In this document: piece after piece, positions 6-19,337 of the stretch
Layout of the letters: the number at the start of each line of letters is the position of its first letter
Position numbering within the stretch: the first letter of the stretch is position 1
Source of the DNA: Propionibacteriaceae bacterium
GTDB taxonomy: Bacteria; Actinomycetota; Actinomycetes; Propionibacteriales; Propionibacteriaceae
Direction of reading: 5' to 3'
DNA: 32,000 nt
NCBI GenBank assembly: GCA_031256725.1
Contig: JAIRQE010000009.1
Location: 30,001-62,000 of the forward strand
Notes under the pieces: generated by a model
Seen by the model: only the letters and a program-made list of their open reading frames with translations
What the model was told of the DNA's origin: nothing
The model's database searches: none
Translations under genes and position numbers: made by a program

Positions 6-746
6 TTATTCTTTGTCGTTTATAGTGACGGGTGTATTGAGTAGCTTTAAGTCAGCACTTGATACAAAACCAGTGGAAATAGCCCATTCAACCAAGCATG
101 CTCGGCGACCACTCGCATGGGTATGCACTCCACCTCTCATACCCTCGACGCCCAATTTGTCGAGTTTCGAACAGACGTTATCGATCTTCTTCTCAAAACG
201 TTTCACTGGCCAACCGATCCGGGCAGCCGCAGATGCGTTGGTTGGTATCCTCGCAACACCTAGGCCTTCACGCAGCAACATGGGTTCGGCTAAAGCAAGA
301 ACCGCCAGATGCTGAGCTTGGGTCCAGCCGATTTCACGTACTGTCGTGTCCCCATCCGAATCGATATGCGGTATGGCCACTTGCCATCGGGGCTCATCAT
401 TGAGCAAGGTCACCCGATAATCACAAGGACCTGCCGTGAACACCACCTCAACTCGATTAAAAACCACTGGCAGACGTGATGATGGACCGAGCCATGCTTG
501 GAGACCAGTCACTTGATCATGGACTGTAGCTCCCAATCCTGTGCCAATGTTGGCAAGCCACCAGAATTCATTTTCAAAAGATATCCGTAAGAACCTTCGA
601 TGAAGGTAAGGATTATTGTCAAGACATAGATCCGCATCACGACCAATATCGAAGACTCGATCTGGACTCAGAGAAACTCTCTGTCCCTCGTATTCCACGA
701 TAAGACCTGAGATCTCTTCAATACCATCAATGTCGACTATGCTCAT
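6..746 (-). CDS. FHA-like N-terminal domain protein with an HTH-like C-terminal region (hypothetical); last visible gene of the kinase operon
   Basis: The ORF track gives 6..755. The internal ATG at 746 forms ATGA with the kinase stop (743-745), so I prefer 746 as the start. The N-terminal segment 'IGRDADLCLDNNPYLHRRFLRISF...NIGTGLGATV' resembles an FHA core (GR ... NG-like), but no clean SxxH is visible. The C-terminal 'GRRACLVEWAISTGFVSSADLKLL' looks like a helix-turn-helix tail. Domain calls are from motif memory only. Confidence 0.7.
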   Translation of the reverse strand: MSIVDIDGIEEISGLIVEYEGQRVSLSPDRVFDIGRDADLCLDNNPYLHRRFLRISFENEFWWLANIGTGLGATVHDQVTGLQAWLGPSSRLPVVFNRVEVVFTAGPCDYRVTLLNDEPRWQVAIPHIDSDGDTTVREIGWTQAQHLAVLALAEPMLLREGLGVARIPTNASAAARIGWPVKRFEKKIDNVCSKLDKLGVEGMRGGVHTHASGRRACLVEWAISTGFVSSADLKLLNTPVTINDKE

Positions 747-3858: not shown

Positions 3859-4655
3859 GACATCACCCGCCCAGGTTGAAATCTCCAGTCCCCAATCACT
3901 TCTTCAATGGTTTCCTCATCTTCAGATTCGTCAGCGTCTTTTACATCCACAACGATCACTGAAATGTTGTCTCGACCTCCCGCTTCTAAAGCAGCTTCCA
4001 CAAGTTTGTTCACAGCATCCTGCGCGAAAGTTTCATGTCTAAGGATGTGTGCAATGACGTCATCGTTGAGTTCTTCAGTGAGTCCATCCGAGCAAATCAT
4101 CCATCTCTCAGGTCCTTGTACTGGAAATAGCCAGTATTCTGGACGTTCCACAGTACGACCTCCAAGAACTCTGGTGATCACGTGTCGACGTCCATAATTC
4201 TGAGCATCCAATACATCTAACCGCCCAGCCTCGATCATTTCCTGTACCTCAGAATGGTCGACCGAGATTTGCGTCACTTCAGACTTGGTTGCTCGATAGG
4301 TGCGAGAATCACCTAGATTCAACACAAGCCAATAGGGTTGGTCAGCCTGCTGGACAAGAACAAGACCACTGATAGTAGTTCCAGCAGCGCGCCGTGCATT
4401 AGTGACCTCAAGATGATCTATTCCAGCTCGGGCACGAGTCAGAGCATCTCTTACGTCTTCTACCTGAGGATAGGGGCCAAGTTTGCCCATTTCTTCAACA
4501 GCAATAGAACTTGCTCGATCCCCAGCATCATGTCCGCCCATGCCATCCGCGACAATGAACACTGGGGTTCTTGCAAGGACTGCATCCTCGTTGAGTGAGC
4601 GCCTGTGTCCTGCATTGGAACAGTGAGCGACTGTGAGGGTGGGTTGAGTGGTCAT
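3855..4655 (-). CDS. PP2C-family Ser/Thr protein phosphatase
   Basis: Diagnostic motifs are 'RSLNEDAV', 'VADGMGGHDAGDRAS' and 'GGRDNISVIVVDV'. The track ORF extends to 4805, but the ATG at 4655 ('MTTQPTLTV...') forms ATGA with the upstream stop (4652-4655). The extra 50 aa lie inside the upstream gene. Confidence 0.9.
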   Translation of the reverse strand: MTTQPTLTVAHCSNAGHRRSLNEDAVLARTPVFIVADGMGGHDAGDRASSIAVEEMGKLGPYPQVEDVRDALTRARAGIDHLEVTNARRAAGTTISGLVLVQQADQPYWLVLNLGDSRTYRATKSEVTQISVDHSEVQEMIEAGRLDVLDAQNYGRRHVITRVLGGRTVERPEYWLFPVQGPERWMICSDGLTEELNDDVIAHILRHETFAQDAVNKLVEAALEAGGRDNISVIVVDVKDADESEDEETIEEVIGDWRFQPGRVMS

Positions 4656-5401
4656 CTGCTGACCCCTTCTATCACGAACCTGCGTGAACCTATGGTGACA
4701 ACGTCTCCAACCTGGACCTGCTTCTCGGCCCGTGGCTGCAGGGGGGTTGTTTGTCCTTGACGAACCAATGTTGATCCATTGGTTGAGCCCCGATCTTTGA
4801 TCCATAACCCGAGGCCATCAAACCCATACTCAAGATGTGTTTTCGAGATGGAGGTGTCGTTGATCGCAGTACACATCACACCAGGATCTGAGGAACTTGG
4901 GTTGCGCCCGATGAGACCTGATCCCATAATTCGTATGCGTTGCCCTGTATCGAAAACGAAATCTACCGTTCCTACATGAATCGGACCATACGATTGGATT
5001 GATGGAACACCCTGATTGGGATCAGGAAGCACCTGAACTTGAGCAGGGTATCCCGTTGGAGGAGTTGTCGAAGCTCCTGGAAGTGGAGGATACGGAGGAT
5101 TGAAACCAGGCTGTGGAATATAAGGAGCGCGTCGCTCAGGAGCAGGCGGATAGTCCAATGCAGGTGTTTGTACTGCTGGTCGCCGATTAAATGGCGTCCC
5201 TTGCTGAGGAGGCGATGACGGCAAGTAGCCTTCCTGGACAGGAGCAGGAGTTTTTGGAGCAACTGGAGGCGCTCCTGGCACACTTGAAATCTTCGGTACT
5301 TGGGACTGTGTGGTCAACACTTGACCACAGGTCAAACACATTTTGAGATCAGCGCCCACGAGAGCAGAACAATTCGGGCACTGTCGGGCGGGTTGGTTCA
5401 T
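4652..5401 (-). CDS. Zinc-ribbon / proline-rich linker / FHA-domain protein
   Basis: The N-terminal zinc ribbon reads 'CPNCSALVGADLKMCLTCG' and is followed by a long Pro-rich linker. The C-terminal FHA domain reads 'LIGRNPSS...SISKTHLEY...DRGSTNGSTLV'. The ATG at 5401 forms ATGA with the transglutaminase-like stop (5398-5401). The track start at 5407 is a GTG two codons upstream. Confidence 0.87.
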   Translation of the reverse strand: MNQPARQCPNCSALVGADLKMCLTCGQVLTTQSQVPKISSVPGAPPVAPKTPAPVQEGYLPSSPPQQGTPFNRRPAVQTPALDYPPAPERRAPYIPQPGFNPPYPPLPGASTTPPTGYPAQVQVLPDPNQGVPSIQSYGPIHVGTVDFVFDTGQRIRIMGSGLIGRNPSSSDPGVMCTAINDTSISKTHLEYGFDGLGLWIKDRGSTNGSTLVRQGQTTPLQPRAEKQVQVGDVVTIGSRRFVIEGVSR

Positions 5402-6681
5402 TTCCACTCCTGTATGTCCAAGGTTGGTTGAGGATTACGACGTAGGGATGCCAAAGAAAACTTGGACATGAACCTCCGCCTTGATGGGAAGGTGGAAGCG
5501 AGGGACCGCGAGACCTTCTCGACTTCTTTCCAGAATTCAGTTGCTTCTTTTTCGGTGGGAGGCGAAGGTGCAAAGGTGCCCTGGTTAGCTAAGTAGGCCA
5601 ATCTTTCTACACCTTCTACACTGTGAGCTTTGGCTAAGGCTGCACTGATTTGTTTACGTGTTGCTGCCTTAGGCGGGATAATTCCGAGGTCAGTCGCATG
5701 GTCAACCATTTCTTGCCAGCCATGCGCGACACGATGTGTGAGGTCCGGGGTTTTTCTTCGTTTCTTGGTACGGCTGAGCTTTATGGAAGTAATAATGATC
5801 AGTGGAGTCACCAAAACCCCTATAGGAATCGTGACAGCGAGTGCGATCCTTAGGATTCGACCCCAGTCAAAGGGTTCTTCTTCCTCTTCTTCCTCATCGT
5901 CGCGAGGATCGAGAGCGGATTGCGAGACATCAGAATCCGAGGAATTGGAAGGCGGAGGAGGCTGCAGTACCTGTGGTTTGGGTTTTGCTTTTGAGCGTTG
6001 ATCCTCTTCTTTCGGTTCTTGATCTTTATCAGGTGTCGGGAAGAAGGGTACCCATCCTATTCCTTCAAATGGGACCTCGACCCAAGCCTGAACATCTGAT
6101 CCTGTGACCCTCCAGGTTGACCCACTGAAGGAGGACTCTGCATCCACACGGAATCCCATGACTACTCGTGATGGTATCCCTGCATCATTCAACAACAGGG
6201 CAGCAGCAACGGCATACTGCTCCCCGTCACCTATCATCCGCTCTGGCTTGTCGAGGAGTTGAGCAATTCGGTATGACGAATGTCCCGGATTCGAGGGTTC
6301 TTCACTTTCGAGTCCATGAGAAAAGAAACCTGTTGTTTGTAATGTGGAGACTATCTCTTCGACTCGTTTAAGGGGGGACTTGTCAGTCCCTGCCCATTCT
6401 GTTGAAAGCGCACCGACCACATCCGGAACCCATTTAGGCTTGGGCATGGCAACCGTCATCAATGAGGTCTCATTCGCAGGTTTTTTACTACTCAAGGTTG
6501 CATTGATGGTGTACGTTACTCCAGACCCTAAAGCAGCAGTGTCAATCAGGGCATCTGTGCTGGGATTGTAGTAGAGAGATTCGGTGAGGGCTTCAAAACG
6601 CTCTCCTGTGAATTCAAGTGTGTCGGAGTGCGATACAGAGTCCACATGGGAAATGGTGGGAAGCTCCTGTGGCAGCACCAA
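5398..6681 (-). CDS. Transglutaminase-like protein, C-terminal fragment (core domain, TM helix and cytoplasmic tail); frameshift-split, possible pseudogene
   Basis: The segment 'GDGEQYAVAAALLLNDAGIPSRVVMGF...DVQAWVEVPFEGIGWVPFFPTPD' aligns to the Transglut_core pattern G-C-E-Q-F-A ... H-A-W-V-E-V ... F-D-P-T-P. A TM helix 'ILRIALAVTIPIGVLVTPLIIITSI' follows. The track 'M' at 6681 is a TTG codon, and this frame stays open upstream to 6717. The fragment has no signal peptide of its own. Confidence 0.75.
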   Translation of the reverse strand: MVLPQELPTISHVDSVSHSDTLEFTGERFEALTESLYYNPSTDALIDTAALGSGVTYTINATLSSKKPANETSLMTVAMPKPKWVPDVVGALSTEWAGTDKSPLKRVEEIVSTLQTTGFFSHGLESEEPSNPGHSSYRIAQLLDKPERMIGDGEQYAVAAALLLNDAGIPSRVVMGFRVDAESSFSGSTWRVTGSDVQAWVEVPFEGIGWVPFFPTPDKDQEPKEEDQRSKAKPKPQVLQPPPPSNSSDSDVSQSALDPRDDEEEEEEEPFDWGRILRIALAVTIPIGVLVTPLIIITSIKLSRTKKRRKTPDLTHRVAHGWQEMVDHATDLGIIPPKAATRKQISAALAKAHSVEGVERLAYLANQGTFAPSPPTEKEATEFWKEVEKVSRSLASTFPSRRRFMSKFSLASLRRNPQPTLDIQEWK

Positions 6682-7588
6682 CGTTATAGACCATGCCGTC
6701 GTAGGTGTCCATAACGGCTAAGCGCAATAGATAATCCTTGTCCCATCCATCAATGATGAAGAGCACTTCTTCTGCGCGATCATCCACAAGGTCCCTGAAA
6801 GAAATCAGGGGGCTTGGATATGCGTGTGTATCCAATGGGGGAACCACATGACGTCGAAGGGCTTCCCTATCTAGGTCAGAGATGACAAAGATTCCCAGGC
6901 AGCCAGCTACGAGAGCACCGATGACTAATTGTATTCCCGCTTTGAGCGTTTTCGAACGACGAACAGCCGCAGTTGAAGCCTCCGAAACCATAAGTTGGTT
7001 GGAGTCGCTTCGCCACGCAATCCAGGCAAGGGATACTCCTGCCATCACGAGAGCTTGAGGTATCGGCATATAGGATCGGGCAGTACCAAAGAGGATTACG
7101 AGAGCCGCCAGCAACCCAAGAGGGATAAAGACCAACCAGATCCTCTTCGCTCTCCATGCAGCCGTTCCAGCACCCACCGCCACAAGGAGCGCAAGAATGA
7201 AGGGAACCAAGGTCATCCCGAAGAAACTCCCCAAAGGTGTTGATACAGTAACGAATTGCTTCCATATACCGACTGATCCGAAAACTAGAATCCTCAAACA
7301 GTCAAGATCTGGAACAACACCAGCGATGGCTCTCGTCCACAGCGCTCCAGCAGCACCAAAGACGAAGTATGCCCCGACAGTGACAGCTGCCACGATTATT
7401 GTTGGCCAACGCTTCCATGCCCCCACCCAGGCAATAACCAACCCAACAGCCATCCCTACAAGTGCTGGTCGAAGGAATCCGAATGAACCAAAGGCTGGCC
7501 AGAATCCCACCAGAGCTGCACTCATGATAAGCAGAATCGCACCCACATCAACGAGGACGCGGGGAGTGAAAAATCGTGGTCTATCCAT
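6614..7588 (-). CDS. Transglutaminase-like protein, N-terminal polytopic membrane fragment; frameshift-split
   Basis: The fragment is 324 aa with about six hydrophobic helices, then 'LRLAVMDTYDGMVYNV', which is typical of the start of the periplasmic part of TgpA-like proteins. It ends in a short out-of-frame-looking tail and overlaps the next fragment by 68 nt in a different frame. An SD-like GGTGGA lies upstream of the ATG at 7588. Confidence 0.75.
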   Translation of the reverse strand: MDRPRFFTPRVLVDVGAILLIMSAALVGFWPAFGSFGFLRPALVGMAVGLVIAWVGAWKRWPTIIVAAVTVGAYFVFGAAGALWTRAIAGVVPDLDCLRILVFGSVGIWKQFVTVSTPLGSFFGMTLVPFILALLVAVGAGTAAWRAKRIWLVFIPLGLLAALVILFGTARSYMPIPQALVMAGVSLAWIAWRSDSNQLMVSEASTAAVRRSKTLKAGIQLVIGALVAGCLGIFVISDLDREALRRHVVPPLDTHAYPSPLISFRDLVDDRAEEVLFIIDGWDKDYLLRLAVMDTYDGMVYNVGAATGASHHFPCGLCIALRHT

Positions 7589-7597
7589 AATTCCACC

Positions 7598-9067
7598 TCA
7601 AACTTCCAAGGAGCGAAGGGCTCGGGGAAAGTCTTCAAGATTGCCAATGGTGAGTACTGGGCTGTTACCAATGACTCCGCGTGAGAGGTGAGCTCCGTTC
7701 CCACATCGAAGAACAACAGTGAGAACGTCAACACCAAACTGTGAGGTCGCCGCATGAAGGCGCCCAGGCCTTACTGGCGTTCCTACTGCTATCACAACGA
7801 CTGAGGCATCGGGCGCTGCAGCGGATCCATCAAGGGCTACGGTTTCTATTCGGTCAACGGGTCCACCGAACTCAAGGCGGGAGAAGTCATCCAGCATCCT
7901 GAGTCCAGTCTGAACATTGAGCCGCTTCTTTGGCGCCTGAATGGTCACATCTTTGTCGTCTCGGATTGCTTGCTGTCCCAGGGATGCGCACGCAGAAACC
8001 GCCAACTCAAAGTCAGCTTCGGATTCATAGTCTTCCACCGACATCGATAGACAGATCACCAAATGAGATCGGCGGGTTTCCTCAAATTGGCGAACGAGGA
8101 GTTTTCCTGTTCGTGCGGTTGATTTCCAGTGGACATGCCTCAGATCATCTCCGACTACATACTCCCGTAGAGCATGGAAGGCTATATCCGAGGATGACAG
8201 TGTGTCGGTCGGACGACCTTCAAGATCTTTCATGAAACCAGCTGAGGAATCTCCAAGAGAAATCGTCTTGGGGTGGATAAAGAGTTCTTGGGCGTCGGTC
8301 CAGATCACTTCGCGTCGAAGCAGACCAAGGCCATCACCGCGTGAGGAACGAACAGGACCAACTGGGATCACAGCTCGCTTTGATGTGTTCACCTGAAAGG
8401 ATTCATCAAAGGAGGCGCTGCCCGCTAGTCGTGGAACTAGAAAGGAGCTAGTAGCCTTTCCCACAGGCATCATGAATGTGGATGCCATCACAGGGCGAGT
8501 GGATGTATTGCTGACACTGACCCCACCAAAGGCGTCCGATCCTACGGTCACCCTGAGGCGACTGAGATCCAGGCTGACATCATAGGTGGATCTTCCAATC
8601 ACAAAGATGATCGAAAAGATTGACAGCGCCACTACCATGAGGGCGATAACTAGGAACTCCATCCACCCTAGCCACCACCCCAGGCCAGCGAGAACAAGAG
8701 AACTGATGAGTGCAGCCCATCCAGCGGGCTGGATGACCGCAAAGAATGGAGAAACCCTACGCCTCAGCGGCTCGCTGACGTGGAGGAATCCTCTCCAGTA
8801 CCGCCCAAGGCGAGCCCCTAAGGGATTCCACCACTGCCTCAACTTTGTCAGTGGAGATGATGTTCGCACCGTGGCTGCTTTGGGCAGAACTCTTTTTGGC
8901 TCCTGCGCATGTCGAGGCGCTTTCTCTCGCCGTTTCGCCGACTTACGAGGCTTGCCTGGAGAGGGTTCTTCTGGTTCCGTCTCAGAGCCTTTCGTCTTCT
9001 CTCGACTAGAAATGACCTGCGGTTTGAGTATGGTCTCGAAGGCCCTTTGGGGTTCGGGAGAACTCAT
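7598..9067 (-). CDS. DUF58-family protein (MoxR partner) with a basic disordered N-terminal tail and two TM helices
   Basis: The DUF58 hallmark 'DDLRHVHWKSTARTGKLLVRQFEE' is present. The N-terminal ~95 aa are K/R/P/S-rich, followed by TM segments 'AALISSLVLAGLGWWLGW' and 'FLVIALMVVALSIFSIIFVIG'. The start forms ATGA with the MoxR stop (9064-9067). Confidence 0.85.
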   Translation of the reverse strand: MSSPEPQRAFETILKPQVISSREKTKGSETEPEEPSPGKPRKSAKRREKAPRHAQEPKRVLPKAATVRTSSPLTKLRQWWNPLGARLGRYWRGFLHVSEPLRRRVSPFFAVIQPAGWAALISSLVLAGLGWWLGWMEFLVIALMVVALSIFSIIFVIGRSTYDVSLDLSRLRVTVGSDAFGGVSVSNTSTRPVMASTFMMPVGKATSSFLVPRLAGSASFDESFQVNTSKRAVIPVGPVRSSRGDGLGLLRREVIWTDAQELFIHPKTISLGDSSAGFMKDLEGRPTDTLSSSDIAFHALREYVVGDDLRHVHWKSTARTGKLLVRQFEETRRSHLVICLSMSVEDYESEADFELAVSACASLGQQAIRDDKDVTIQAPKKRLNVQTGLRMLDDFSRLEFGGPVDRIETVALDGSAAAPDASVVVIAVGTPVRPGRLHAATSQFGVDVLTVVLRCGNGAHLSRGVIGNSPVLTIGNLEDFPRALRSLEV

Positions 9068-10035
9068 GAAGGCATCCCGATCTTGGGTGCAGGCACCTCG
9101 GTGAGGATCCTCCCTACAATCTGGGAAGCAGTTGCGCCAGCAAACTCGGCTTCAGGATCAAGGACCAGTCGATGGGACAGGACTGGCCCAGCGAGTTCCT
9201 GAATATCTTCAGGAAGAACATATTCACGCCCCTGAGAAGCAGCCCACACCTTGGCTGCCCGAGTCATGGCGAGAGCCCCACGCACGGAGACCCCGATTCG
9301 GGTTTCGGAGGTCGCCCGAGTTTCTTCCGCAATCCATGAGACGTAATCCAAGACTGCATCAGGCACATGGACCTTAGCCGCCATATCAGCCATCTGACAG
9401 ACCGCATCAGTTGTGATGACCGACGAAATGGCAGCAGCACGATTCTTCACAGCAGCGCCAGAAAGGATTTCAACGGTACTCGCCCTGTCTGGGTATCCAA
9501 TCGATGTCTTCATCAGGAATCGGTCAAGTTGAGCCTCTGGTAGGCGATAGGTACCTGCCTGCTCAATGGGGTTCTGAGTGGCAAGCACCATGAAGGGGCG
9601 ACCCACCGGGCGGGTAACCCCATCCACTGTCACCTGACCCTCTTCCATGACCTCCAAAAGGGCAGACTGGGTCTTAGGCGAAGCACGGTTGATCTCATCA
9701 GCAAGAACAATGGTGGCAAAGATTGGCCCCGGTTTAAACTCGAAGACCCCACGAGACTGGTCATAGACTGTGACACCAGTGACATCAGTCGGCAAAAGGT
9801 CCGGAGTGAACTGGATACGCTTCTCCTGGCCTTCCACTGAGGCAGCCAGTGAGCGAGCTAACATGGTTTTTCCTGTACCAGGCGCATCCTCCAGAAGGAT
9901 ATGCCCCTCGGCGAGGAGAGCCGACACAGCCAGACGCACCACGTATTCTTTACCGAGCACTGCTTGACTCACGCTTGAAACGATTTGCCCGAAAGCTTGG
10001 GCAAACCATTGTGCCTCTTCACGAGTTATTGACAT
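9064..10035 (-). CDS. moxR: MoxR-family AAA+ ATPase
   Basis: The protein is 323 aa. Motifs present are Walker A 'APGTGKT', Walker B 'VLADEINRASPKTQSALLEVMEE', sensor-1 'LATQNP' and 'LPEAQLDRF'. Its size is typical of the family. Confidence 0.93.
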   Translation of the reverse strand: MSITREEAQWFAQAFGQIVSSVSQAVLGKEYVVRLAVSALLAEGHILLEDAPGTGKTMLARSLAASVEGQEKRIQFTPDLLPTDVTGVTVYDQSRGVFEFKPGPIFATIVLADEINRASPKTQSALLEVMEEGQVTVDGVTRPVGRPFMVLATQNPIEQAGTYRLPEAQLDRFLMKTSIGYPDRASTVEILSGAAVKNRAAAISSVITTDAVCQMADMAAKVHVPDAVLDYVSWIAEETRATSETRIGVSVRGALAMTRAAKVWAASQGREYVLPEDIQELAGPVLSHRLVLDPEAEFAGATASQIVGRILTEVPAPKIGMPS

Positions 10036-10061
10036 GGTTTTCCTTTTCTAAATGTTTCAAG

Positions 10062-13000
10062 CTACCAGTTCATTGTCTGGGTTTTGGAGGTAACTCCATG
10101 GATCTCGACTGTGAACACATCCGTCTTGTTGACGTAGCCATTCAGGCCACCCTGTCCGCCATGTTTAGGACATGCCATATATCCACTTCCATCAGAGGCG
10201 CGACCAACCTCCACTTGGCCCGTAATGGAGCCTGTCATCCCATTGGGTTGCCTCCAAGAACATGTCACGGTATATGTGCCCCCACCTTCAAGAGCCCACT
10301 TATTGAAACCGATGTGCCCTCTACAACCTCCGGTCAATCCGGGACCTACTGCACCGACACAATCGTTGGGGTTCACATACAACCAGTACTCTGCTGCTGG
10401 TTTGGAATGGGCTGTGGTTGAAGCGCTATTCTCTGAGCACTGACCCTCCGAATCACAGGCTTTGACCCAAATGGTATGGGTCTGCCCCCAACCATCTCCA
10501 ATCGAAATAGTTCCACTGTCCAAACCGTCTGTTTCCCACCAGCTACCCGTATCAATTTTAGCCATAACGTAAGTAACTCGGCGACCGTTCCAGCTGGGCC
10601 TACTCCAGCCAAGAATCACTTTCGTGCTTTCCCGGTCACTCGGGCGTTCCGCTGTAGCTCCAGGTTTATTCACTGGCCCAAAAGGACGACAACTGGTTAC
10701 CGATCGCTCCTCACCATCCTGTGAAAAGCCTTGCACACTAGTCCGAGCCCATACAGTAATAGTAATAGCATTATCAGAATTAGCTAGGCCAGACGCCGTC
10801 CCTGACGTGCTTGTTCCAAAGTCTCCAGACTGACCAGAACTCGCTCTCCAGTGATATGTCACCTCAGAGGATTTGGCTCCATTGAGAGCTGCGGGGCTGA
10901 AACTCACCACACATGCCTTGTCTCGATCTTGGGTGGAAAGATTCGAAACTGGTCCAGGTTTGATCACCGATCTGAACTCATCAGAGTTCACGGAAAATTG
11001 CCCTTGCCCAGCTTTGTTGTGCGCAGCAACCTTGAAGGTGTAGCCATTTTCAGAACTTGGGAGAGTGGTGGTCCGACATGTTCTTCCACCTGTGGGAGTT
11101 ACTGTGTAGGTCACTCCACTTGATGAAGTCAGAGTGTAGGAGGAGATCCTATCCCCATTGTTGTAGGGTTCAGTCCAGCACACCTCAACCTGCCCTTCAG
11201 AACCAACAGGATTCAGTCGAGTCCAGGTGGGTTGCACTGGTGGATCAGGAGGCCCTGCTGGAATCTGTGGAAGGGAGAGAGGAGACCAGTGGCTGGCTTG
11301 CTCACAGACCCCAGGAGCCAGGTTTCGAGCACAAGCCATGACTTGGTATTCGGTTCCGTTCGACAGACCCGACCAGACGTAAGATGTGCCAGTGACATTC
11401 ACGATTGCCTGCCCCGAGGGCGGAGGTGGCGAGATCTCTAGATCATAGGAAGTAACAGGAGATCCAGGACTTCCTCGAGGAATCCACGTAATAGTCAAAG
11501 ACTTGTTGCCAAATGCAAGGACTGGAGCATCGAGCCTATTAGGGATCGCATCTGGGCGTGCTTCATCGGAAGCCATAGAGGGATCGGATGTACCCACCTC
11601 ATTTGTGGCGGTCACAGTGAATCGATAGGTGACGTTGTTCGTCAATCCATTCAAGATGCATGTGGTGGTTGGACACTGTAATGGGTAGCCTGACGCGGGC
11701 GGACTTGAGGACACGGTGTATCCACTCAGGGGTGCACCATTATTATCCGCAGGCATCCAACTCAGAATCACCTGTCGATCACCCACTTGATCAATATGAA
11801 CACCTGTGGGTGGGCTTGGTCTGCCACGAACATTGAGATAGATCCGCCCAGTCGACTGACGGTTGGGATCCTGGGTGACATCCACGATCACATATCTCAC
11901 AACCATTTCACCCAGGAAAGAGGCTGCTGGAGTCACATTGACGCCCTGGCCTCCCCCGCAACCCACTACAGCTTGCCCATCACCGGTTTCAACCGATGCA
12001 CTGACGACCGTCAGGGAATCATTGGGGAAAGGATTCGTGTCATTACTTGTCACAGGAACGCACACAGTCTGCCCCTGATTCGAGCTAGGGATCATGTCAT
12101 CAACAGCCTGAGGCAGAGGTCTCCTAGTTCCTACGATCTTTATGGTCACAGTAGCCTCAACTTCAACCTCACCTAAGGTGACAGATACTCGAAGAACCGA
12201 CTCGCTTCCACTGGGAACATTGGAACCTGCGCTTGCAGTGAGCGTTGAACCGCTTAGGCTGGCCTCTACGCCACCAAGAGAGGGGCCCTCCAGCAGTGAG
12301 TACGTCAAGCGATCTGTTGGCTGAACATTCGACACTAGAGTCGCCAAATCAAAGGTGGAACCCTCTCCCACCTCAACCTCAAGGGCCGTGCTTCTCATCA
12401 CAGGAATGGTGGCTTCTTCTTCGTCCTCTTCCTCTTCTTCCTCCTTGGCCTTATCACCAGGAAGAACTTTGACTGGGATCGTCACCACAGCAGCAATGCC
12501 CGTGTCATCCTCCAGGGTTGCGCCATCAGTTACCTTGACCGAAATAGCGGCTGGCCCCTGATAGTTGTCGGGGGCAGTGAAACTCAGTTGAGTCACCGAT
12601 GGTGCGGTAGCCGAACCATTCCATGCTGTTATTCCTGCTGCATCGACAACCCTAGGGCTACGATCCGTGCGAACTATCACATGATCAGCCAGTGCGAAAG
12701 AAATAGTCTCTCCTGAACGGACTTCGACACGTTTCGCTTCTGGGTTATATTGAGGTGGAATAAGGTCTGCCCCTGGCACTGTAATGAATCCATGTCCAAC
12801 CTGACCATCGGGATCAGTGACGTAATAGTCAATGATTTGGAGGTCAGCGGTGATGGGCACAGTCACGTTATTGGCTGACACGGATACAGTCGGATCATCA
12901 ACGCTGACAACCAAGGATTCTTTATCCCCATCTGGATCATAGTCATTAGCCAAAACCTCAAGGGTCATAGAAGTATTAAGAAGGGCCTCTAAGGTCGAAA

Positions 13001-15635
13001 CCTCGTCGTCGGTGACTAGAGGCTTCTTAGGCTGAATATCTTCAGCGACTGTCAACACGATGACCCCAGTGGACTCCTGATAGAACTCATCGGAGACTGT
13101 GTATGTCCCCCAATAGGATCCCACCTGGTCGGGAGCTTGAATGATGACTTCCTGACCATCCACTTCTCCAGTGAAAAACTCCGATTGAACTGAGCCACCT
13201 TTCAGATAGCAGCAGATGTCTCCATCAGGATCAGTGTCATTCATGGTCACTGGAATAGTTACCTTGCCGCCTGGAATAGCCTCAGCAAAATCTGTAACTG
13301 CATTGGGAGGAAGGTTCATATCTGAGGCAGGTGCTACGCCTATCCGCACACGGCCAGTTGATTCCAATCCAAGTCTGTCCCTGACCACATAGGTGAATTC
13401 GTCACCAGTCGTATTCGCCCCAGGCTCATAAACGAACTTGTTTCCTTTGAGCGATGTGATGATTCCTTGACCTGGCGCAGAGGCTAGCCCCGTCACTGTC
13501 ACGTGATCACCATTGGGGTCGACACCATTCAAAGGAATCTCAATATTGACTGGATTCCCGATTCGTGTTCGGGCCTGAACATCCTTAGGCTTAGGAGCCT
13601 GGTTTCCACCCTCATCTTGTGGAGTGACATAGATAGTGAGACGCCCAGTATCCGGTTCAGCAGAACCTTTGACAACCTCGACCTGATAAAGAACCGTATA
13701 TGTTCCCGGCTCCTGGCGAGCATGGACCCTGACCGTATTACCCGAGGTGAAGACAAGGGCTTCCGTATCAGGATCGGGGGTCTCAGGAAGGTCTGGGCGG
13801 AGCCTGAGAGCGATTCCATTGGCCTGAGTATCGTTGCTTAACACGCTCACCGTGGCGATGTCTCCAACGCGTACCGTCACGGTGTCATCCACCGCAGTGG
13901 GAGGAAGAACCTTGTCTGGAGCAGGAAGCGGCACAACTGTAATGCGACTTGAGGCATATCCCTTACCATTGGAGACCGTATAGGAAATAGAAATTGGTGA
14001 TGAGAACTCCTGATTGGGCGTGATCTTCACCCGCTCATATTCCAAAACCGACACACTCACTGGGAGACCCGAATCAACACCGACACTGGTCACTACAAGC
14101 GGGAACCCAAGCGGGTTCACATCATTGTCGAGCGGGGTTACAAAGGCATCCTGACCAGGAGAAAGGAGCACTGTATCGGGAACTGCGATTGGCGGCTCAT
14201 CACCAGCCGCCTTGGGAATCACTAACACCCTTATCCATGATTCAACATTGGCAGAAGGACCGTCAGTCACGGTGTAGGTCAGGTATACCGATCCTGGTTC
14301 TGAGCAGGTTGCCGTCACCAAACCTTGAGTGAGTTCCTTTTCCAATACACACTTGGCAGGATCACCTTCGACCCCCGTTAATCTCAACGAGTTACCATTG
14401 GGATCCGTGTCATTATCGAGCGGCCGGATTTCAATAGGAGTATCGACTGTTCCTGAGACAAGATCTGGTGTCGCCACTGGTGGCCTATTACCAGAAGGCA
14501 AAACATTCACCATGATTTCCTGGGTATTTGACTCTTGCCCATCGGATACAGTGACCTGAACCGTTTTGACACCCGTCGTGAGACCACCATCCTGGAAGGT
14601 CAAAGTCCCATCTTGTGTCACAGTAACCGAATCTTCTTGAGGCGCTTCTGCCCCAAGAAGGAAGATCGTATCTCCATCTGGATCTCTCCAGTTGGTCAAA
14701 ACATTATGGGTTACACGTTGACCACTAGAGACCGTTAGTACTGTAGCTCGTGCTGTCTCAGGAGCGGAATTCTCAGACTCAGGGCGAATGGCAACCGTGA
14801 CAGATGCGGTCGATTCTCCCCCTCGACCATCATGAACCCTGTAAGCAAAACTCACCACACCTGAGGCTGTTGCTGGAACATTCATTTGTATGATCGCTTG
14901 CGAATACACGAGGTTAAGATCAAAACCGGCAGGGGCGCTTCCGAGCAACTCAACTGTGAGAAGATCCCCATCCTCATCAATATCATTTTCAACAACGGGA
15001 AGGAGCACACTCCTGCCTGGGCGAGCCCCAAACTCATCATCTCTAGCTACCGGAGGCCTATTGTCTCCTGAGCGATCAATCTTCTCGTTCTCATCGATCT
15101 CTTCTGTACTGTCCTGATCCTCATTGCCTTCGTCACCTCGAAGGGCTTCCTCCCAATTGTCCACCTTGACAACAAGATCAGTGACCAACCAAATGCCGCC
15201 AGACTTTATTTGATTGAGCACGATATGGCCCCAGTTGACACGAAAACGAAGCTCATCATCAACATCGAAATCGGGTATGGCCTGCTTCAGATCGTGGGTC
15301 TCGCCAATACAGTCTCGAATGAAATCTCCAGTCTGTGACCAGACTCCGTAAGTACATCCGTCCACAACAACAGGCTGGGAAGGAATACCCTCTGCAGATG
15401 TCACCTCGGGATCCTGCCCACCTAGAGGTTGTACGACTAAACCTTGGGTGGTGGCGTATGCTACTGAACTACCTGACTCAGACATCGCCTGCAACACGAC
15501 AGGATCTGTAGTCAGATCAACCGCCTGAAGATTCATACTTTTCTTGGTTCCTAAGTGAATCACTTGAGAATCATGGTTGATGACAACTGGAGTTTTCCCC
15601 ACAACGGTCATCGAATAGGTATCTTCCTCACCCAA
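10062..15635 (-). CDS. Giant surface/secreted protein, main fragment: multiple cadherin-like/Ig-like repeats, about five FN3 domains and a Cys-containing C-terminal domain
   Basis: The ORF is 1857 aa. Recurrent Ca-binding-type repeat motifs include 'ENDIDEDGD', 'DNDTDPNGN', 'MNDTDPDGD' and 'ANDYDPDGD', each preceded by 'PPVA/PNAV'. FN3-like modules include 'PSPPTGVHIDQVGDRQVILSW...YTVSS' and 'LTITWIPRGSPGSPVTSYDLEIS'. A poly-Glu patch 'EEEEEEDEEE' is present. I saw no signal peptide, LPXTG motif or TM helix. The track 'M' at 15635 is a TTG codon, and the frame is open upstream to 15701. Confidence 0.85.
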   Translation of the reverse strand: MGEEDTYSMTVVGKTPVVINHDSQVIHLGTKKSMNLQAVDLTTDPVVLQAMSESGSSVAYATTQGLVVQPLGGQDPEVTSAEGIPSQPVVVDGCTYGVWSQTGDFIRDCIGETHDLKQAIPDFDVDDELRFRVNWGHIVLNQIKSGGIWLVTDLVVKVDNWEEALRGDEGNEDQDSTEEIDENEKIDRSGDNRPPVARDDEFGARPGRSVLLPVVENDIDEDGDLLTVELLGSAPAGFDLNLVYSQAIIQMNVPATASGVVSFAYRVHDGRGGESTASVTVAIRPESENSAPETARATVLTVSSGQRVTHNVLTNWRDPDGDTIFLLGAEAPQEDSVTVTQDGTLTFQDGGLTTGVKTVQVTVSDGQESNTQEIMVNVLPSGNRPPVATPDLVSGTVDTPIEIRPLDNDTDPNGNSLRLTGVEGDPAKCVLEKELTQGLVTATCSEPGSVYLTYTVTDGPSANVESWIRVLVIPKAAGDEPPIAVPDTVLLSPGQDAFVTPLDNDVNPLGFPLVVTSVGVDSGLPVSVSVLEYERVKITPNQEFSSPISISYTVSNGKGYASSRITVVPLPAPDKVLPPTAVDDTVTVRVGDIATVSVLSNDTQANGIALRLRPDLPETPDPDTEALVFTSGNTVRVHARQEPGTYTVLYQVEVVKGSAEPDTGRLTIYVTPQDEGGNQAPKPKDVQARTRIGNPVNIEIPLNGVDPNGDHVTVTGLASAPGQGIITSLKGNKFVYEPGANTTGDEFTYVVRDRLGLESTGRVRIGVAPASDMNLPPNAVTDFAEAIPGGKVTIPVTMNDTDPDGDICCYLKGGSVQSEFFTGEVDGQEVIIQAPDQVGSYWGTYTVSDEFYQESTGVIVLTVAEDIQPKKPLVTDDEVSTLEALLNTSMTLEVLANDYDPDGDKESLVVSVDDPTVSVSANNVTVPITADLQIIDYYVTDPDGQVGHGFITVPGADLIPPQYNPEAKRVEVRSGETISFALADHVIVRTDRSPRVVDAAGITAWNGSATAPSVTQLSFTAPDNYQGPAAISVKVTDGATLEDDTGIAAVVTIPVKVLPGDKAKEEEEEEDEEEATIPVMRSTALEVEVGEGSTFDLATLVSNVQPTDRLTYSLLEGPSLGGVEASLSGSTLTASAGSNVPSGSESVLRVSVTLGEVEVEATVTIKIVGTRRPLPQAVDDMIPSSNQGQTVCVPVTSNDTNPFPNDSLTVVSASVETGDGQAVVGCGGGQGVNVTPAASFLGEMVVRYVIVDVTQDPNRQSTGRIYLNVRGRPSPPTGVHIDQVGDRQVILSWMPADNNGAPLSGYTVSSSPPASGYPLQCPTTTCILNGLTNNVTYRFTVTATNEVGTSDPSMASDEARPDAIPNRLDAPVLAFGNKSLTITWIPRGSPGSPVTSYDLEISPPPPSGQAIVNVTGTSYVWSGLSNGTEYQVMACARNLAPGVCEQASHWSPLSLPQIPAGPPDPPVQPTWTRLNPVGSEGQVEVCWTEPYNNGDRISSYTLTSSSGVTYTVTPTGGRTCRTTTLPSSENGYTFKVAAHNKAGQGQFSVNSDEFRSVIKPGPVSNLSTQDRDKACVVSFSPAALNGAKSSEVTYHWRASSGQSGDFGTSTSGTASGLANSDNAITITVWARTSVQGFSQDGEERSVTSCRPFGPVNKPGATAERPSDRESTKVILGWSRPSWNGRRVTYVMAKIDTGSWWETDGLDSGTISIGDGWGQTHTIWVKACDSEGQCSENSASTTAHSKPAAEYWLYVNPNDCVGAVGPGLTGGCRGHIGFNKWALEGGGTYTVTCSWRQPNGMTGSITGQVEVGRASDGSGYMACPKHGGQGGLNGYVNKTDVFTVEIHGVTSKTQTMNW

Positions 15636-15669
15636 GTCAGAAAAACCAGCTTTGTCGATCTTGGCAGAT

Positions 15670-16245
15670 TCAGCTTCTGAGATACCCCCCCCCCCAGACC
15701 GTTATTAGGGTGCTAGTCAAAGGGTCGACAACGTATCCTGTTCCATCAAACCCAACCGAAGACACGGCATTGTGTGGAAGATCCTCAACAATCGGAGGGA
15801 AGACCTCAGTATTCGGATCAAATCCTGCTACTGAACTCACAGGGATCATCCAGAACTTTCCCTGCTCAGGAACAAGGATTCCAACCATCTCTCCACCAAG
15901 ACTTACCTGAGTACTCGACCCAAGGAGTTGTTGGATTCCCAAGGTCAGATTAGGAGGATTCACCTGAACAAAAGATCCATCATCAGGACCAGTAACGAAG
16001 ACGGATGTGCGGTCCTGAATCACATCGAAATCGGTGACTTCCGTCACATACGAAATACCATCAATCTGCCCTGCACTGTGATTAAAACGCCCCAGATGTT
16101 GGATGGAATGATTCGTCACCCAAACCCCAGAGTCATTCATATCGACTGTAGCAACAGGCATTCCCTCACTCGCTACAGCAAGACCAACCAATCCCATAGA
16201 CAAGGACGCGACTAACCCAACGGACAAGGCTTGATGCCATTTCAT
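15670..16245 (-). CDS. N-terminal fragment of the giant surface protein (Sec signal peptide plus the start of the N-terminal domain), truncated just after the poly-G tract
   Basis: 'MKWHQALSVGLVASLSMGLVGLAVA|SEG' has the n/h/c layout of a signal peptide. An SD-like AAAGGAGA lies upstream of the ATG at 16245. The ORF ends '...TVWGGGYLRS*', where WGGG is encoded by the G11 run. Confidence 0.8.
   Translation of the reverse strand: MKWHQALSVGLVASLSMGLVGLAVASEGMPVATVDMNDSGVWVTNHSIQHLGRFNHSAGQIDGISYVTEVTDFDVIQDRTSVFVTGPDDGSFVQVNPPNLTLGIQQLLGSSTQVSLGGEMVGILVPEQGKFWMIPVSSVAGFDPNTEVFPPIVEDLPHNAVSSVGFDGTGYVVDPLTSTLITVWGGGYLRS
15685..15695 (-). repeat. 11-nt homopolymer (C11 on the + strand, G11 on the coding strand) at the junction of the two giant-protein fragments
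   Basis: Counted directly from 'gata cccccc ccccc agacc'. The other homopolymer runs I noticed in the window are 6 nt or shorter. Confidence 0.97.
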
Positions 16246-16497
16246 ACTAGCTTTGTCTCCTTTCGCTGCCTGCCACCTGAACCCCCAAACAATCTCCGAT
16301 GTTTGATCGGAGCCTATTATTTCACCATCATCTGATTTATCTCATCATTAAGATTCCTTCTGAGACAACATTGATCAGAAAATCCCCTACCGGACCTTGA
16401 CAGAGAATGCTACCTAACAGACAAATCAGATTCTCTAATTCTTTCTTGATGCGAAAGATACGTCCATGGGGATAAATCCCCTTGTTTCCTTTCCGCA

Positions 16498-16619
16498 GTG
16501 TCAGGACTCATCTCAGGACACACCTCACAAAGTGAAATCTTTCTTGTCAATGTCTAGAACCTCAGGCGGCCTCTATGAGATAAAAGTGTGTCCTGAGATA
16601 CGGTCCTGACACCTGACAC
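16498..16619. promoter_or_regulatory. Long imperfect inverted repeat built from TCAGGAC/GTCCTGA heptamers in the divergent intergenic region
   Basis: The left arm at 16498-16523 reads GTGTCAGGACTCATCTCAGGACACAC. The right arm at 16586-16612 reads GTGTGTCCTGAGATACGGTCCTGACAC. The two arms are complementary over the outer 10 and inner 13 positions and differ only in a central 3-4 nt. Each arm holds two heptamers 12-13 bp apart. An extra CTGACAC copy lies at 16613-16619. Confidence 0.6.
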
Positions 16620-16675
16620 CCTGATTGTTGGGAGGAGGATCATCTTGAATTGACATCTCCCGTACACTGGTATCT

Positions 16676-16912
16676 ATGGGACGACTTTTGCCTGTGATAC
16701 TTGTGCTAGCTGCAACGATCTTCACGTTAGTTCATCTTGCCCAAGCTGATTCCAAGGGGGTACGTGTAGTCCCAAAGATACTGTGGCTTTTAATGATCCT
16801 CACCCTGCCTATTATTGGGATGACCGGGTGGTGGATCTTTGGTCGCCCGATTGAAGAGGATGTACCTCCAACCGCACCTGATGATGATCCTGATTTCTTG
16901 AGAAAACTCTGA
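16676..16912 (+). CDS. Small two-TM membrane protein, PLDc_N-like (PLD nuclease N-terminal domain family)
   Basis: The protein is 78 aa. 'LLPVILVLAATIFTLVHL' and 'ILWLLMILTLPIIGMTGWWIFGRP' match the short PLDc_N pattern. The tail is acidic. Confidence 0.6.
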   Translation: MGRLLPVILVLAATIFTLVHLAQADSKGVRVVPKILWLLMILTLPIIGMTGWWIFGRPIEEDVPPTAPDDDPDFLRKL

Positions 16913-16985
16913 TCCGAGATCCGTCGATTCAAGGTACTTGAGGCATCCGAAGGATCACCAGAAATCACTGTTTGTGTTGTTTCCC

Positions 16986-17393
16986 CTAGTCATTGCGCAC
17001 TGTTAGGGCCCAGGATTGATCACCTTCAACATAAGCTCCATGCCAGACCTCATTGCTGAACATGAGTGCACCAGAAGATTCTGAAGTAATCTCCCATCCC
17101 AAACCTGGCAGGGTTCCCCTGAGATAGGCTTCGATATCCTTCGCTTCTGAGATGATCCCTGTCACGATGAGAAGATTCCCCTGATCAGCGGTATAGGTCA
17201 GGGTTACATGATCAGGAATCCAGATCATTGACGCGGCTTCGTTGGTGAATCCTAGGCGAGCTAGGGACTCCCCGGTGTTGGGAAGACTCACCTGTACCGT
17301 GGGCGTAGGAGTCGGTTCCCCCATATTCCCCGCAGAACAGGAAGACAGCATCAGCGATCCAAGGATCACCACAGCAATTGTGCGAATCCTCAC
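16986..17393 (-). CDS. Putative lipoprotein (hypothetical)
   Basis: The lipobox 'LSSC' follows the hydrophobic 'RIRTIAVVILGSLML'. A GTG at 17393 is preceded by the SD AGGAAGGA about 6 nt upstream. The track start at 17483 would add 30 non-signal residues and overlap the divergent gene's start. Confidence 0.65.
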   Translation of the reverse strand: MRIRTIAVVILGSLMLSSCSAGNMGEPTPTPTVQVSLPNTGESLARLGFTNEAASMIWIPDHVTLTYTADQGNLLIVTGIISEAKDIEAYLRGTLPGLGWEITSESSGALMFSNEVWHGAYVEGDQSWALTVRND

Positions 17394-17482
17394 ATGAGTC
17401 CTTCCTATGCCCAACCAGGGAGCATTCCCAGCGTACCCCAGAGGTCTCCAGTAAGCTGTGCGGGTATCATAAGGAGACTGCA

Positions 17483-18451
17483 ATGAACCTGTTCGCCCTG
17501 ATTCGCGAGCCCATGCCTACCATCCGACCTACAGATCTACTCACTGAGGATCACCCCGATCGTTCCTATCCTCACAAGCATCCCGTACGCTCCTCGGCGT
17601 GGCTTCGTGGAGGATTGTTTATCCTACTCATGGTCGTAGGCACATTCATCTTCACATCGATCTATCAGGCAGTCAACGGGTCCTTCAATGTGAGTTTCAC
17701 TGCGAGTGCTGTCACCCAACTTCTTGCAGCAATAGCCGCCTATGCTGTGGTCTGCTTCATCACCGAATCGCGGGTATGGCCCCATGAGATCGCTCTGAAA
17801 CGACTTGGAGGACTCCTCAAGGGGATGTTGCTTGGTGTCCTTCTTGTTTCCCTGTCCATTGGTGTACTCGCGATTCTGGGAAACTACACCATCACTGGAT
17901 TCAACTCTGACTACTCCCCGTGGATGGATCTGCTGACACTGGGAGTGGTTGCTGCAATATCTGAGGAAATCATGTTGCGTGGGATCCTGTTCCGCCTTGT
18001 GGAAGAGGGATTAGGAAGCTGGGGTGCTGTACTCATCTCAGCCCTCGTCTTCGGTTTCATGCATATTCTCAACCCCGATGCCAGTCTGTGGGGAGCCATC
18101 GCTATCTCTATTGAAGCAGGTATCCTTTTCGCTGGACTCTACATCATCACCCGGTCTCTGTGGTGGTGCATCGGTATGCACTTTGCCTGGAATATGACCC
18201 TCGGCCCGGTCTTCGGGTCCATCGTTTCGGGTACTGGAGCCCAAGAAAGCTGGCTCGTCAGCCACTGGAGCGGTTCCGATCTTCTCACTGGAGGGATCTT
18301 CGGCCTTGAGGCCTCCATCATTCCTGTGATCCTCTTGGGTGCTCTAGGGATCTTCCTACTCATCTACGCCCACATCTCAGGTCTGATGACTGCCCCCATC
18401 TGGGTTCGCAAACAGACATTGAGCGGATCAACCTCGGGCGATCAAGCCTAA
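17483..18451 (+). CDS. CPBP-family intramembrane glutamic endopeptidase (CAAX/Abi-like)
   Basis: Motifs 'SEEIMLRGILF' (EExxxR) and 'FGFMHI' (FxxxH) are present, plus a later 'HFAWN', in a multi-TM protein. The ATG at 17483 has the SD AAGGAG 6 nt upstream. The track start at 17378 lacks support. Confidence 0.8.
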   Translation: MNLFALIREPMPTIRPTDLLTEDHPDRSYPHKHPVRSSAWLRGGLFILLMVVGTFIFTSIYQAVNGSFNVSFTASAVTQLLAAIAAYAVVCFITESRVWPHEIALKRLGGLLKGMLLGVLLVSLSIGVLAILGNYTITGFNSDYSPWMDLLTLGVVAAISEEIMLRGILFRLVEEGLGSWGAVLISALVFGFMHILNPDASLWGAIAISIEAGILFAGLYIITRSLWWCIGMHFAWNMTLGPVFGSIVSGTGAQESWLVSHWSGSDLLTGGIFGLEASIIPVILLGALGIFLLIYAHISGLMTAPIWVRKQTLSGSTSGDQA

Positions 18452-18895
18452 CCCGCGATCCGTCCATGTGAGTTCTCGCCTTCGCCCCTGGTTGGCACAG
18501 GTACCACAGTAGGCCCTGTACTTAGGTTTACGGTGCCTGAAGACTTCGTGCCCGCGTACACAGACTCCCTGCCATCGTGCTGAGATCCTGGCTTCGGGAA
18601 TTTCTATCGTACGACCCCCCACATATCCCAGGGATCTTGCCGTCTTCACCCATGTACGCCCATGGCCTTCGTGTACCCCTACGAGCCCGTGGGCAATCTC
18701 GTGGAGGATGATCTGCTCAACCTCGTCATCCGCCAAGTAGGCAATGAGATAGGTTGAACAAGTAATCTTCTTTTTTGTGTAATGGCAGCATCCCGCCCGG
18801 GTACGTGCATAGTCAAGCCCGAAAGACCATTGGGATCCAAGGTGCTGGGCAACAAGGGCCTCACCCCTAGCACGGGTGTACTCAGCAGTAGCCAC
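18428..18895 (-). CDS. SprT-like zinc metallopeptidase-domain protein
   Basis: The protein carries 'ILHEIAHGLVGVHEGHG' (HExxH) and a C-terminal Cys cluster 'CVRGH...CGTC'. The start is GTG. The 3' end overlaps the convergent CPBP gene by 24 nt. Confidence 0.75.
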   Translation of the reverse strand: MATAEYTRARGEALVAQHLGSQWSFGLDYARTRAGCCHYTKKKITCSTYLIAYLADDEVEQIILHEIAHGLVGVHEGHGRTWVKTARSLGYVGGRTIEIPEARISARWQGVCVRGHEVFRHRKPKYRAYCGTCANQGRRRELTWTDRGLGLIARG

Positions 18896-18902
18896 AGCAA
18901 TC

Positions 18903-19337
18903 TCAGGCAGTGGCAGCGATGTGCGCCAGGGCGTAATCGTATCCAGCCAGACCCATCCCAGCGATCACACCCTGGGTCACTGCAGAGATCACTGAATGGT
19001 GACGGAACTCCTCGCGAGCATGAATATTCGAGATGTGTACCTCAACCAGAAACCCAACTTCACGGGCAGCATCAGCAATGGCATGGGAATAATGAGACCA
19101 AGCCCCCGGATTGATGACCACCGGAATCGACTCATCGGCTGCTTCATGAAGCCAGGAAATCAGCTCAGCTTCAGAATCTGTTTGGCGTACCTCAACTGCG
19201 AGGCCAAGACCCTCGCCAGTGCCAACCAGGTGTTCAGCCAAATGGGCATGGGTGAGCGAACCATAGACGTCGGGATCGCGTACACCTAGACGACCCAGGT
19301 TAACCCCATTGAGTACAAAAACCCTCTTCACTTCCAC
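18903..19337 (-). CDS. aroQ: Type II 3-dehydroquinate dehydratase
   Basis: The protein is 144 aa. 'VLNGVNLGRLGVRDPDVYG' and 'HISNIHAREEFRHHSV' are signature regions for type II DHQase. The start is a GTG at 19337 or 19331. Confidence 0.9.
   Translation of the reverse strand: MEVKRVFVLNGVNLGRLGVRDPDVYGSLTHAHLAEHLVGTGEGLGLAVEVRQTDSEAELISWLHEAADESIPVVINPGAWSHYSHAIADAAREVGFLVEVHISNIHAREEFRHHSVISAVTQGVIAGMGLAGYDYALAHIAATA

Follow-up and report, generated by a model that had tools for sequence, protein, structure and literature searches.

The stretch of DNA analyzed here, referred to as the window, comprises 32,000 nucleotides (positions 30,001 to 62,000 of contig JAIRQE010000009.1, assembly GCA_031256725.1) of a metagenome-assembled genome (MAG) labeled "Propionibacteriaceae bacterium" (locus tags LBG99_031xx). 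Its minus strand carries a giant gene whose reading frame is interrupted by a run of 11 G residues (G11; C11 on the plus strand) in codons 185 to 188 of 2,060. In the NCBI annotation the two pieces are entered separately, as MDR0488386.1 (191 amino acids [aa]) and MDR0488385.1 ("tandem-95 repeat protein," 1,824 aa). The features of the interrupted gene are as follows.

15685 to 15695, minus strand: G11 homopolymer, the proposed slippage tract (from the sequence, and from a G9 run at the homologous position in the relative L089 described below).
15673 to 15701, minus strand: interval in which both frames are open (three-frame translation).
15670 to 16245, minus strand: upstream fragment of 191 aa with the start codon, an N-terminal hydrophobic helix, and the first half of a predicted beta-propeller (open reading frame, structure prediction).
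10062 to 15635, minus strand: downstream fragment (1,857 aa when read from the nominal TTG start at 15635), with the second propeller half, about nine Big_9/cadherin-like repeats, and three FN3 domains (open reading frame, profile scans).
10062 to 16245, minus strand: whole giant gene, 2,060 aa at G10 (frame arithmetic; homologues continuous across the junction).

On the minus strand the sequence around the tract reads ACG GTC TGG GGG GGG GGG TAT CTC AGA AGC TGA, with exactly 11 G residues, and the upstream open reading frame (ORF) terminates at the TGA at 15670 to 15672. Three-frame translation showed that the downstream frame is blocked by TAA TAA, opens at CGG at position 15701, and from there reads GGGGISEAESAKIDKAGFSDLGEEDTYSM... 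(R S G G G G I S E A E S A K I D K A G F S D L G E E D T Y S M). The two frames are jointly open only over the 29 nt from 15673 to 15701, and any frame-restoring event must therefore fall there. Deletion of one G (G10) gave a single ORF from 16245 to 10062 encoding 2,060 aa without an internal stop, and addition of two G residues (G13) gave an ORF of 2,061 aa; the in-frame tract lengths are G10, G13, and G7. With G11, the stop of translation is given as eight codons past the tract. The junction-spanning peptide of the in-frame fused protein is TVWGGGISEAESAK. A sequence-only reading of the window, made before this analysis, had already described the tract, the stop, the surrounding sequence, the interval open in both frames, and the single ORF obtained with G10 or G13, and all of this proved correct.

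The tract is the sole homopolymer of at least eight bases in the window. G/C runs of four, five, and six bases occurred 171, 29, and 7 times, respectively, runs of 7 to 10 bases were absent, and one run of 11 bases was present; the counts dropped about four- to sixfold with each extra base. Composition and first-order Markov models predicted 0.01 to 0.02 G/C runs of at least 11 bases per window. No other run of at least eight bases was found in 49.5 kb of the contig (the window and a further 17.5 kb flanking both sides), and homologous loci totaling 512 kb, many with a G+C content above 70%, contained none either, their longest run having seven bases. These run-length spectra ruled out a chance origin of the tract.

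A search with the 191-aa fragment returned a single close relative, the 195-aa protein P0160, which is 85% identical to the fragment and encoded on a 2.8-kb ENA contig (L089; assembly ERZ27257340) from a different sample. A search with the fused 436-aa N terminus had instead given only four distant matches, with words from the Big_9 repeats saturating the candidates. L089 carries a tract of nine G residues (T-G9-T) at exactly the homologous position, in the same codon. Its upstream ORF stops 10 codons past the run, and a second ORF in another frame extends over 473 codons to the contig end. In both lineages the in-frame length is G10, which encodes WGGGISEAE in the window and WGGGVSEAE in L089, so that the window is off by +1 and L089 by -1. 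When both tracts were set to G10, the two sequences aligned without gaps over 665 codons, with no stops and no indel except in the tract.

The sequence-only reading had left two options, a switch or a homopolymer miscall in the assembly. According to the latter, the true tract would be G10 and the gene intact and constitutively ON. Short-read platforms and library PCR are prone to errors in long poly-G runs, and the sequences of both lineages stem from metagenome assemblies. The Logan assembly of run SRR14710887 (83.7-kb contig) matched the window exactly over the compared stretches (window positions 1064 to 19245), G11 included, and although both assemblies of this contig may stem from the same reads, the recovery of G11 by two different assemblers indicates that it is not a quirk of one of them. 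Furthermore, L089 from a different sample is off by one in the other direction, and it is improbable that two consensus errors arose in opposite directions. In controlled G11/C11 templates, the right length was kept in about 94 to 97% of the sequence families, with errors being mostly -1 rather than +1 (PMC9187656). A miscall is thus a very improbable explanation, and of the two options the switch is favored by the occurrence of G11 and G9 at the same codon with G10 in frame, as well as by the constraint on an otherwise undamaged gene.

This constraint was evident from the comparison of the window with L089. The nucleotide identity was 78%, and the synonymous differences were near saturation (pS of 0.55 upstream and 0.71 downstream of the tract), with nonsynonymous differences (pN) of 0.08 and 0.09, respectively. 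The resulting ratio of nonsynonymous to synonymous substitution rates (dN/dS) was 0.08 upstream and 0.04 downstream, which indicates that the part lying out of frame in both assemblies has been strongly constrained through a long divergence. The tract itself has remained pure G in both lineages. The conserved glycine codons outside the tract were GGG in both lineages in only about 17% of the cases, and the chance that two internal tract codons stayed GGG in both lineages was estimated at roughly 0.03. No stop or further indel was present in the 1,857 downstream codons of the window gene, leaving a single lesion in 6.2 kb. A decaying pseudogene, in which several lesions and a dN/dS approaching 1 are expected, was rejected on these grounds. 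Plain loss of function would mean that the operon is decaying and that G11 is the earliest damage, struck at a mutational hot spot and neither adaptive nor reversible. The intact downstream codons and their low dN/dS across saturated synonymous divergence argue against it, and since L089 has the opposite out-of-frame length, it would require two independent and very recent losses at one tract. Unless switching is tolerated or beneficial, it is also difficult to see why G10 is retained in a strongly constrained gene.

More distant homologues showed how the gene is organized elsewhere. Two proteins with about 40% identity (P0001 and P0002) and two metagenomic loci with 58 to 61% identity (L003 and L004) aligned on both sides of the junction in a single frame. 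A scan with one genome per species added 80 loci, which came from MAGs of Propionibacteriaceae, from Promicromonosporaceae and Cellulomonadaceae, and from others. Of the 82 homologous loci, 81 had a frame unbroken for at least 360 codons from the N terminus or to the contig end, so that, judged by these sequences, the giant gene is ancestrally single. The tract falls in the most variable part of the N-terminal domain, flanked by the conserved blocks YVVDP and YSMT; the sequence and length of this part differ in every relative. The metagenome scan gave no conspecific contig with another tract length, only tractless relatives with 58 to 61% identity. The closest genomes are other uncultured Propionibacteriaceae MAGs; the isolate names of the related MAGs are those of termite gut MAG studies, and we presume that the source was a termite gut. 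In several Promicromonosporaceae (Luteimicrobium, Antribacter, and Isoptericola), two copies of the giant gene were found about 6 to 13 kb apart on one contig (L012/L013, L011/L015, L017/L019, and L055/L075), pointing to tandem duplication within the family.

The fused protein contains a single strongly hydrophobic segment, residues 5 to 27. Structure prediction for the repaired N terminus (ColabFold/AlphaFold; predicted local distance difference test score [pLDDT] of 68, predicted template modeling score [pTM] of 0.69) gave a helix from residue 4 to 27 and an all-beta domain from residue 33 to 360, in which the tract-encoded residues 186 to 194 form a low-confidence loop between two strands. 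In a Foldseek search the latter domain resembled beta-propellers, namely, the YVTN propeller of an archaeal S-layer protein and BamB. The helix may be either a signal peptide with an AVA/SEG-like site or a membrane anchor; its restriction to the short fragment agrees with the sequence-only reading, and the 1,857-aa fragment has no export signal. The 191-aa fragment matched no Pfam or NCBIfam family, and its nature was deduced from the homologue alignment and the structure prediction. In the downstream fragment, Big_9 was matched nine times and FN3 three times, besides bacterial cadherin-like domains and the NCBIfam tandem-95 repeat. Taken together, the model and the domain limits suggest that the frameshift splits one folded domain and leaves 90% of the protein without the export or anchor helix. 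Two separate functional proteins were rejected as an explanation, as the break interrupts one predicted propeller and no export signal is present in the large fragment; going by the model, neither frameshift product is likely to be functional.

The product had earlier been called a surface protein. This is tenable insofar as the protein is probably located in the envelope, either N-terminally anchored or secreted, but the fused protein contains no LPXTG motif, and no sortase or pilin domains were detected in Pfam scans of the window ORFs. The N-terminal 360 residues, for which Pfam and NCBIfam gave no match, are conserved in members of the Propionibacteriaceae, Promicromonosporaceae, and Cellulomonadaceae; they include the predicted propeller, and residues 33 to 360 (encoded within 15670 to 16245 and 14900 to 15701, minus strand) appear to form an undescribed domain family. 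Acidic runs encoded by GAA/GAG-rich low-complexity stretches occur in the giant protein (KAKEEEEEEDEEEAT, within 10062 to 15635) and in the transglutaminase of the same operon (DDEEEEEEEPFDW, within 5398 to 6681).

The fact that both known lineages are out of frame would also fit programmed recoding, in which this is the normal state and transcriptional slippage or ribosomal frameshifting yields a short secreted half-propeller and a little giant protein. Runs of 9 to 11 bases are generally known to be long enough for RNA polymerase slippage, giving +1 and -1 transcripts. However, the corrections required are opposite (-1 nt in the window and +1 nt in L089), with the window needing a +1 and L089 a -1 ribosomal shift, which is incompatible with one fixed ribosomal frameshift. 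RNA folding around the tract was unremarkable (z = 0.19), with no stimulatory structure. According to the structural model, the 191-aa product would be half of a single fold and unlikely to function alone, and equivalent tracts in Bifidobacterium breve have been ascribed to replication slippage (PMC9187656). As the main mechanism, recoding therefore has very little probability.

We consider it likely that the G tract is a hypermutable homopolymer acting as a slipped-strand ON/OFF switch, that is, that the giant gene is phase variable. This view is based on the old, conserved tract, the out-of-frame lengths bracketing G10, the flawless and constrained 6.2-kb gene, and the early position in the first gene of an operon. 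The locus shows the characteristics of a contingency gene: a homopolymer beyond the roughly eight bases needed for slippage in the 5′ part of the coding region, toggling between an intact and a truncated product, a length difference between lineages, and purifying selection. With G10, G13, or G7, one protein of about 2,060 aa would be formed, consisting of the export or anchor helix, the beta-propeller, and an extended stalk built of Ig-like, cadherin-like, and FN3 repeats, and the in-frame tract would encode a Gly-Gly-Gly surface loop of the propeller. With G11, as in the window, or G9, as in L089, translation would end 8 to 10 codons beyond the tract and leave the propeller halved. The 1,857-aa remainder has no start context or export signal of its own, and the protein would be OFF. 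The untranslated 5.6 kb would probably also lower the expression of the downstream genes via polarity. From the sequence comparison, slippage would be frequent and reversible in the living population; it would occur at replication, and transcriptional slippage may contribute. To our knowledge, actinobacteria lack MutS and MutL and use a NucS pathway that leaves indels uncorrected, which would make such runs especially unstable.

The giant gene heads a tightly packed operon of roughly 16 kb on the same strand, the ORFs of which overlap or nearly abut. Downstream of it, the following genes were identified.

9064 to 10035, minus strand: MoxR-family AAA+ ATPase (AAA_3, AAA_lid_2; profile scan), starting 27 nt past the stop of the giant gene.
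7598 to 9067, minus strand: DUF58 protein (profile scan), start overlapping the MoxR stop.
5398 to 7588, minus strand: TgpA-like transglutaminase gene (tgm), split into a TgpA_N ORF (6614 to 7588) and a Transglut_core ORF (5398 to 6645/6681) (profiles, tblastn, alignment).
4652 to 5401, minus strand: FHA-domain protein, 249 aa.
3855 to 4655, minus strand: PP2C-type Ser/Thr phosphatase, 266 aa.
2395 to 3858, minus strand: 487-aa protein with a C-terminal FHA domain (profile scan).
743 to 2395, minus strand: Ser/Thr protein kinase, 550 aa, near the 3′ end of the operon (profile scan).
6 to 755, minus strand: 249-aa protein without a family match, start overlapping the kinase stop; the last operon ORF inside the window.

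The syntenic clusters L087 and L088 have a gene for 239 aa after the kinase. Just to the left of window position 1 (L085, 13059 to 21653), the kinase operon is adjoined by a gene for a 1,478-aa protein with an FHA domain and two FtsK/SpoIIIE ATPase domains (EccC/EssC-like) and by several unannotated proteins; this neighborhood possibly represents a type VII secretion cluster.

Upstream of the giant gene, three candidate expression signals were noted.

16256 to 16264, minus strand: Shine-Dalgarno-like sequence GAAAGGAGA, 10 nt upstream of the ATG (sequence; partly conserved in L089).
16312 to 16324, minus strand: candidate extended -10 promoter element TGAAATAAT (consensus match and conservation in L089).
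16354 to 16380, minus strand: conserved block with the inverted repeat TTCTGA-N11-TCAGAA, a candidate operator (conservation between the window and L089).

Scanning for promoters and terminators produced a single weak promoter-like site; conservation of its -10 element in L089 was the sole reason to retain it as a candidate. Both upstream blocks (16354 to 16380 and 16312 to 16324) are conserved between the window and L089 despite the saturation of synonymous sites in the gene. A G+C-rich hairpin at 16461 to 16481 (GGGGATTTATCCCC), perfectly conserved in the two lineages and terminator-like on the plus strand, is probably the terminator of a divergently placed small PLDc_N gene.

As proposed in the sequence-only reading, the tract thus lies in the first gene of an operon; a second lesion in this operon, not at a homopolymer, had been overlooked. 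The tgm gene consists of two overlapping ORFs, one for the TgpA_N membrane domain (324 aa) and one for the transglutaminase core (415/427 aa). A HMMER search returned 894 homologues, and nearly all of the top 150 were 740 to 880 aa in length and matched the 324-aa ORF over the first ~310 residues; in a relative's syntenic cluster, tgm is a single ORF of 763 aa. According to tblastn and a multiple alignment, the homology switches frame near positions 6635 to 6649, and a conserved stretch of 26 to 30 residues (...RVGxxLG...TVxVGxYxGxWxP) is gone. When the two ORFs were joined by hand, the TgpA_N profile matched no further than before, and the split was settled by the homologue lengths and tblastn. 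A search with the TgpA_N ORF returned no close relative, only the query itself. Judged by the alignment, the lesion looks like an out-of-frame deletion of about 78 nt. The core fragment is probably inactive because it has no N-terminal membrane segment to export it.

Frameshifts at coding sequence homopolymers are the basis of reversible ON/OFF switching by slipped-strand mispairing at the contingency loci of Neisseria, Haemophilus, Helicobacter, and Campylobacter (poly-G/C tracts in genes for surface proteins and lipooligosaccharide) and at the 7C tract of glpK in Mycobacterium tuberculosis. The giant gene shares the coding sequence homopolymer with these classical cases, which concern other phyla or genes and for which, in contrast to the switching proposed here, rates and phenotypes have been measured.

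The nearest parallel is found in the sortase-dependent pilus genes of B. breve UCC2003 (Penno et al. 2022, PMC9187656), confirming the mention of Bifidobacterium poly-G frameshifts in the sequence-only reading. There, a G11 tract in bbr_0113a/b and a G10 tract in bbr_1889a/b part a short ORF with a Sec signal from a very large pilin ORF. In culture, G11, G12, and G10 accounted for 37%, 59%, and 3%, respectively; in-frame lengths were enriched in the mouse gut, and transcription dropped past the premature stop (PMC9187656). As in B. breve, the window shows, in an actinobacterium, an intragenic run of 10 to 11 G residues close to the 5′ end of a cluster's first gene, a short ORF with the start and the secretion signal, and a huge downstream ORF (2,674 aa in bbr_1889b) lacking a signal and a Shine-Dalgarno sequence, with the annotated reference state being OFF. 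Unlike the pilus switch, the window contains no sortase (in the Pfam scans), LPXTG motif, or pilin domains, the tract lies 185 codons into the gene within a propeller loop rather than just after the signal peptide, and the operon consists of MoxR, DUF58, transglutaminase, and kinase genes rather than pilus genes. Switching was measured in B. breve; in the window it is deduced from the sequence.

Within the Propionibacteriaceae, the part of the study of Scholz et al. (2016, PMC4746626) drawn on here describes 54 variable tracts in Cutibacterium acnes, nearly all G/C and 28% of them intragenic. The resemblance extends to the frame-shifting effect of some intragenic tracts and to lengths of 6 to 13 nt that differ between lineages. 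Among the intragenic examples named in that part, none lies in a homologue of the giant gene. The set of five core genes that surrounds the tract corresponds to the PFNA operon of Bifidobacterium (pkb2, fn3, aaa-atp, duf58, along with tgm; Nezametdinova 2018, Dyachkova 2019, PMC6803598), and the window contains all five: a large FN3-containing adhesin-like protein, a MoxR ATPase, a DUF58 protein, a polytopic transglutaminase, and a Ser/Thr kinase. Differences are the host, a Propionibacteriaceae MAG, and the gene order, with the kinase near the 3′ end followed by one small ORF (pkb2 is named first in Bifidobacterium). The large protein of the window moreover has an additional beta-propeller and about nine Big_9/cadherin-like repeats, FHA and PP2C genes are present, and tgm is split. 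Because of the other host family and the kinase position, we regard the window operon as PFNA-like and not as a strict member. No report of phase variation of PFNA was met in the literature, in which no search was aimed at it.

Several observations weigh against a phase-variable switch. The tract is known from two lineages only, both represented by short-read metagenome assemblies and both out of frame, with no ON-state sequence among them. Comparison of the tract across relatives, as suggested in the sequence-only reading, gave the G9 of L089 and no G run at the junction in the 82 more distant homologous loci, so that the tract is lineage specific. In C. acnes, tract lengths follow clades, and the authors of the study cited above favor gradual accumulation over active switching (PMC4746626). 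The tgm lesion is probably irreversible, the operon in this genome may already be degenerating, and turning the giant gene ON again might not restore the full system. The split of tgm by an out-of-frame deletion of conserved residues and the missing tract in the 82 loci also speak for the plain loss of function considered above, as do the deteriorated genes associated with homopolymeric tracts that the C. acnes study reports (PMC4746626). In view of the undamaged, constrained coding region and the opposite tract length in L089, we nevertheless consider plain loss unlikely. A long-term OFF state may have let the downstream tgm lesion arise.

Phase variation of the giant gene could reach beyond its own product. 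Through translational uncoupling and polarity over 5.6 kb, the tract might make the whole PFNA-like module, comprising MoxR, DUF58, transglutaminase, FHA, PP2C, and Ser/Thr kinase genes, phase variable; we put this forward tentatively and rather doubt it. If true, a stochastic switch would act on an entire envelope-remodeling and signaling operon in a gut actinobacterium, and a widespread operon would face fluctuating selection from host, phage, or competitor.

The mechanism of slipped-strand switching and its occurrence in actinobacterial surface protein genes have been documented before. New are the target, which is the lead gene of a PFNA-like operon in an uncultured member of the Propionibacteriaceae, the position of the tract inside a predicted beta-propeller loop, and the comparison of two lineages. 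For the annotation of MAGs, the result is a warning that the "hypothetical" MDR0488386.1 and the "tandem-95 repeat" MDR0488385.1 represent one gene. PFNA-like operons are conserved across many actinobacteria. A conserved tract of variable length would mark the product of the lead gene as exposed and under fluctuating selection, and may thereby provide a clue to the role of the operon in gut symbionts.

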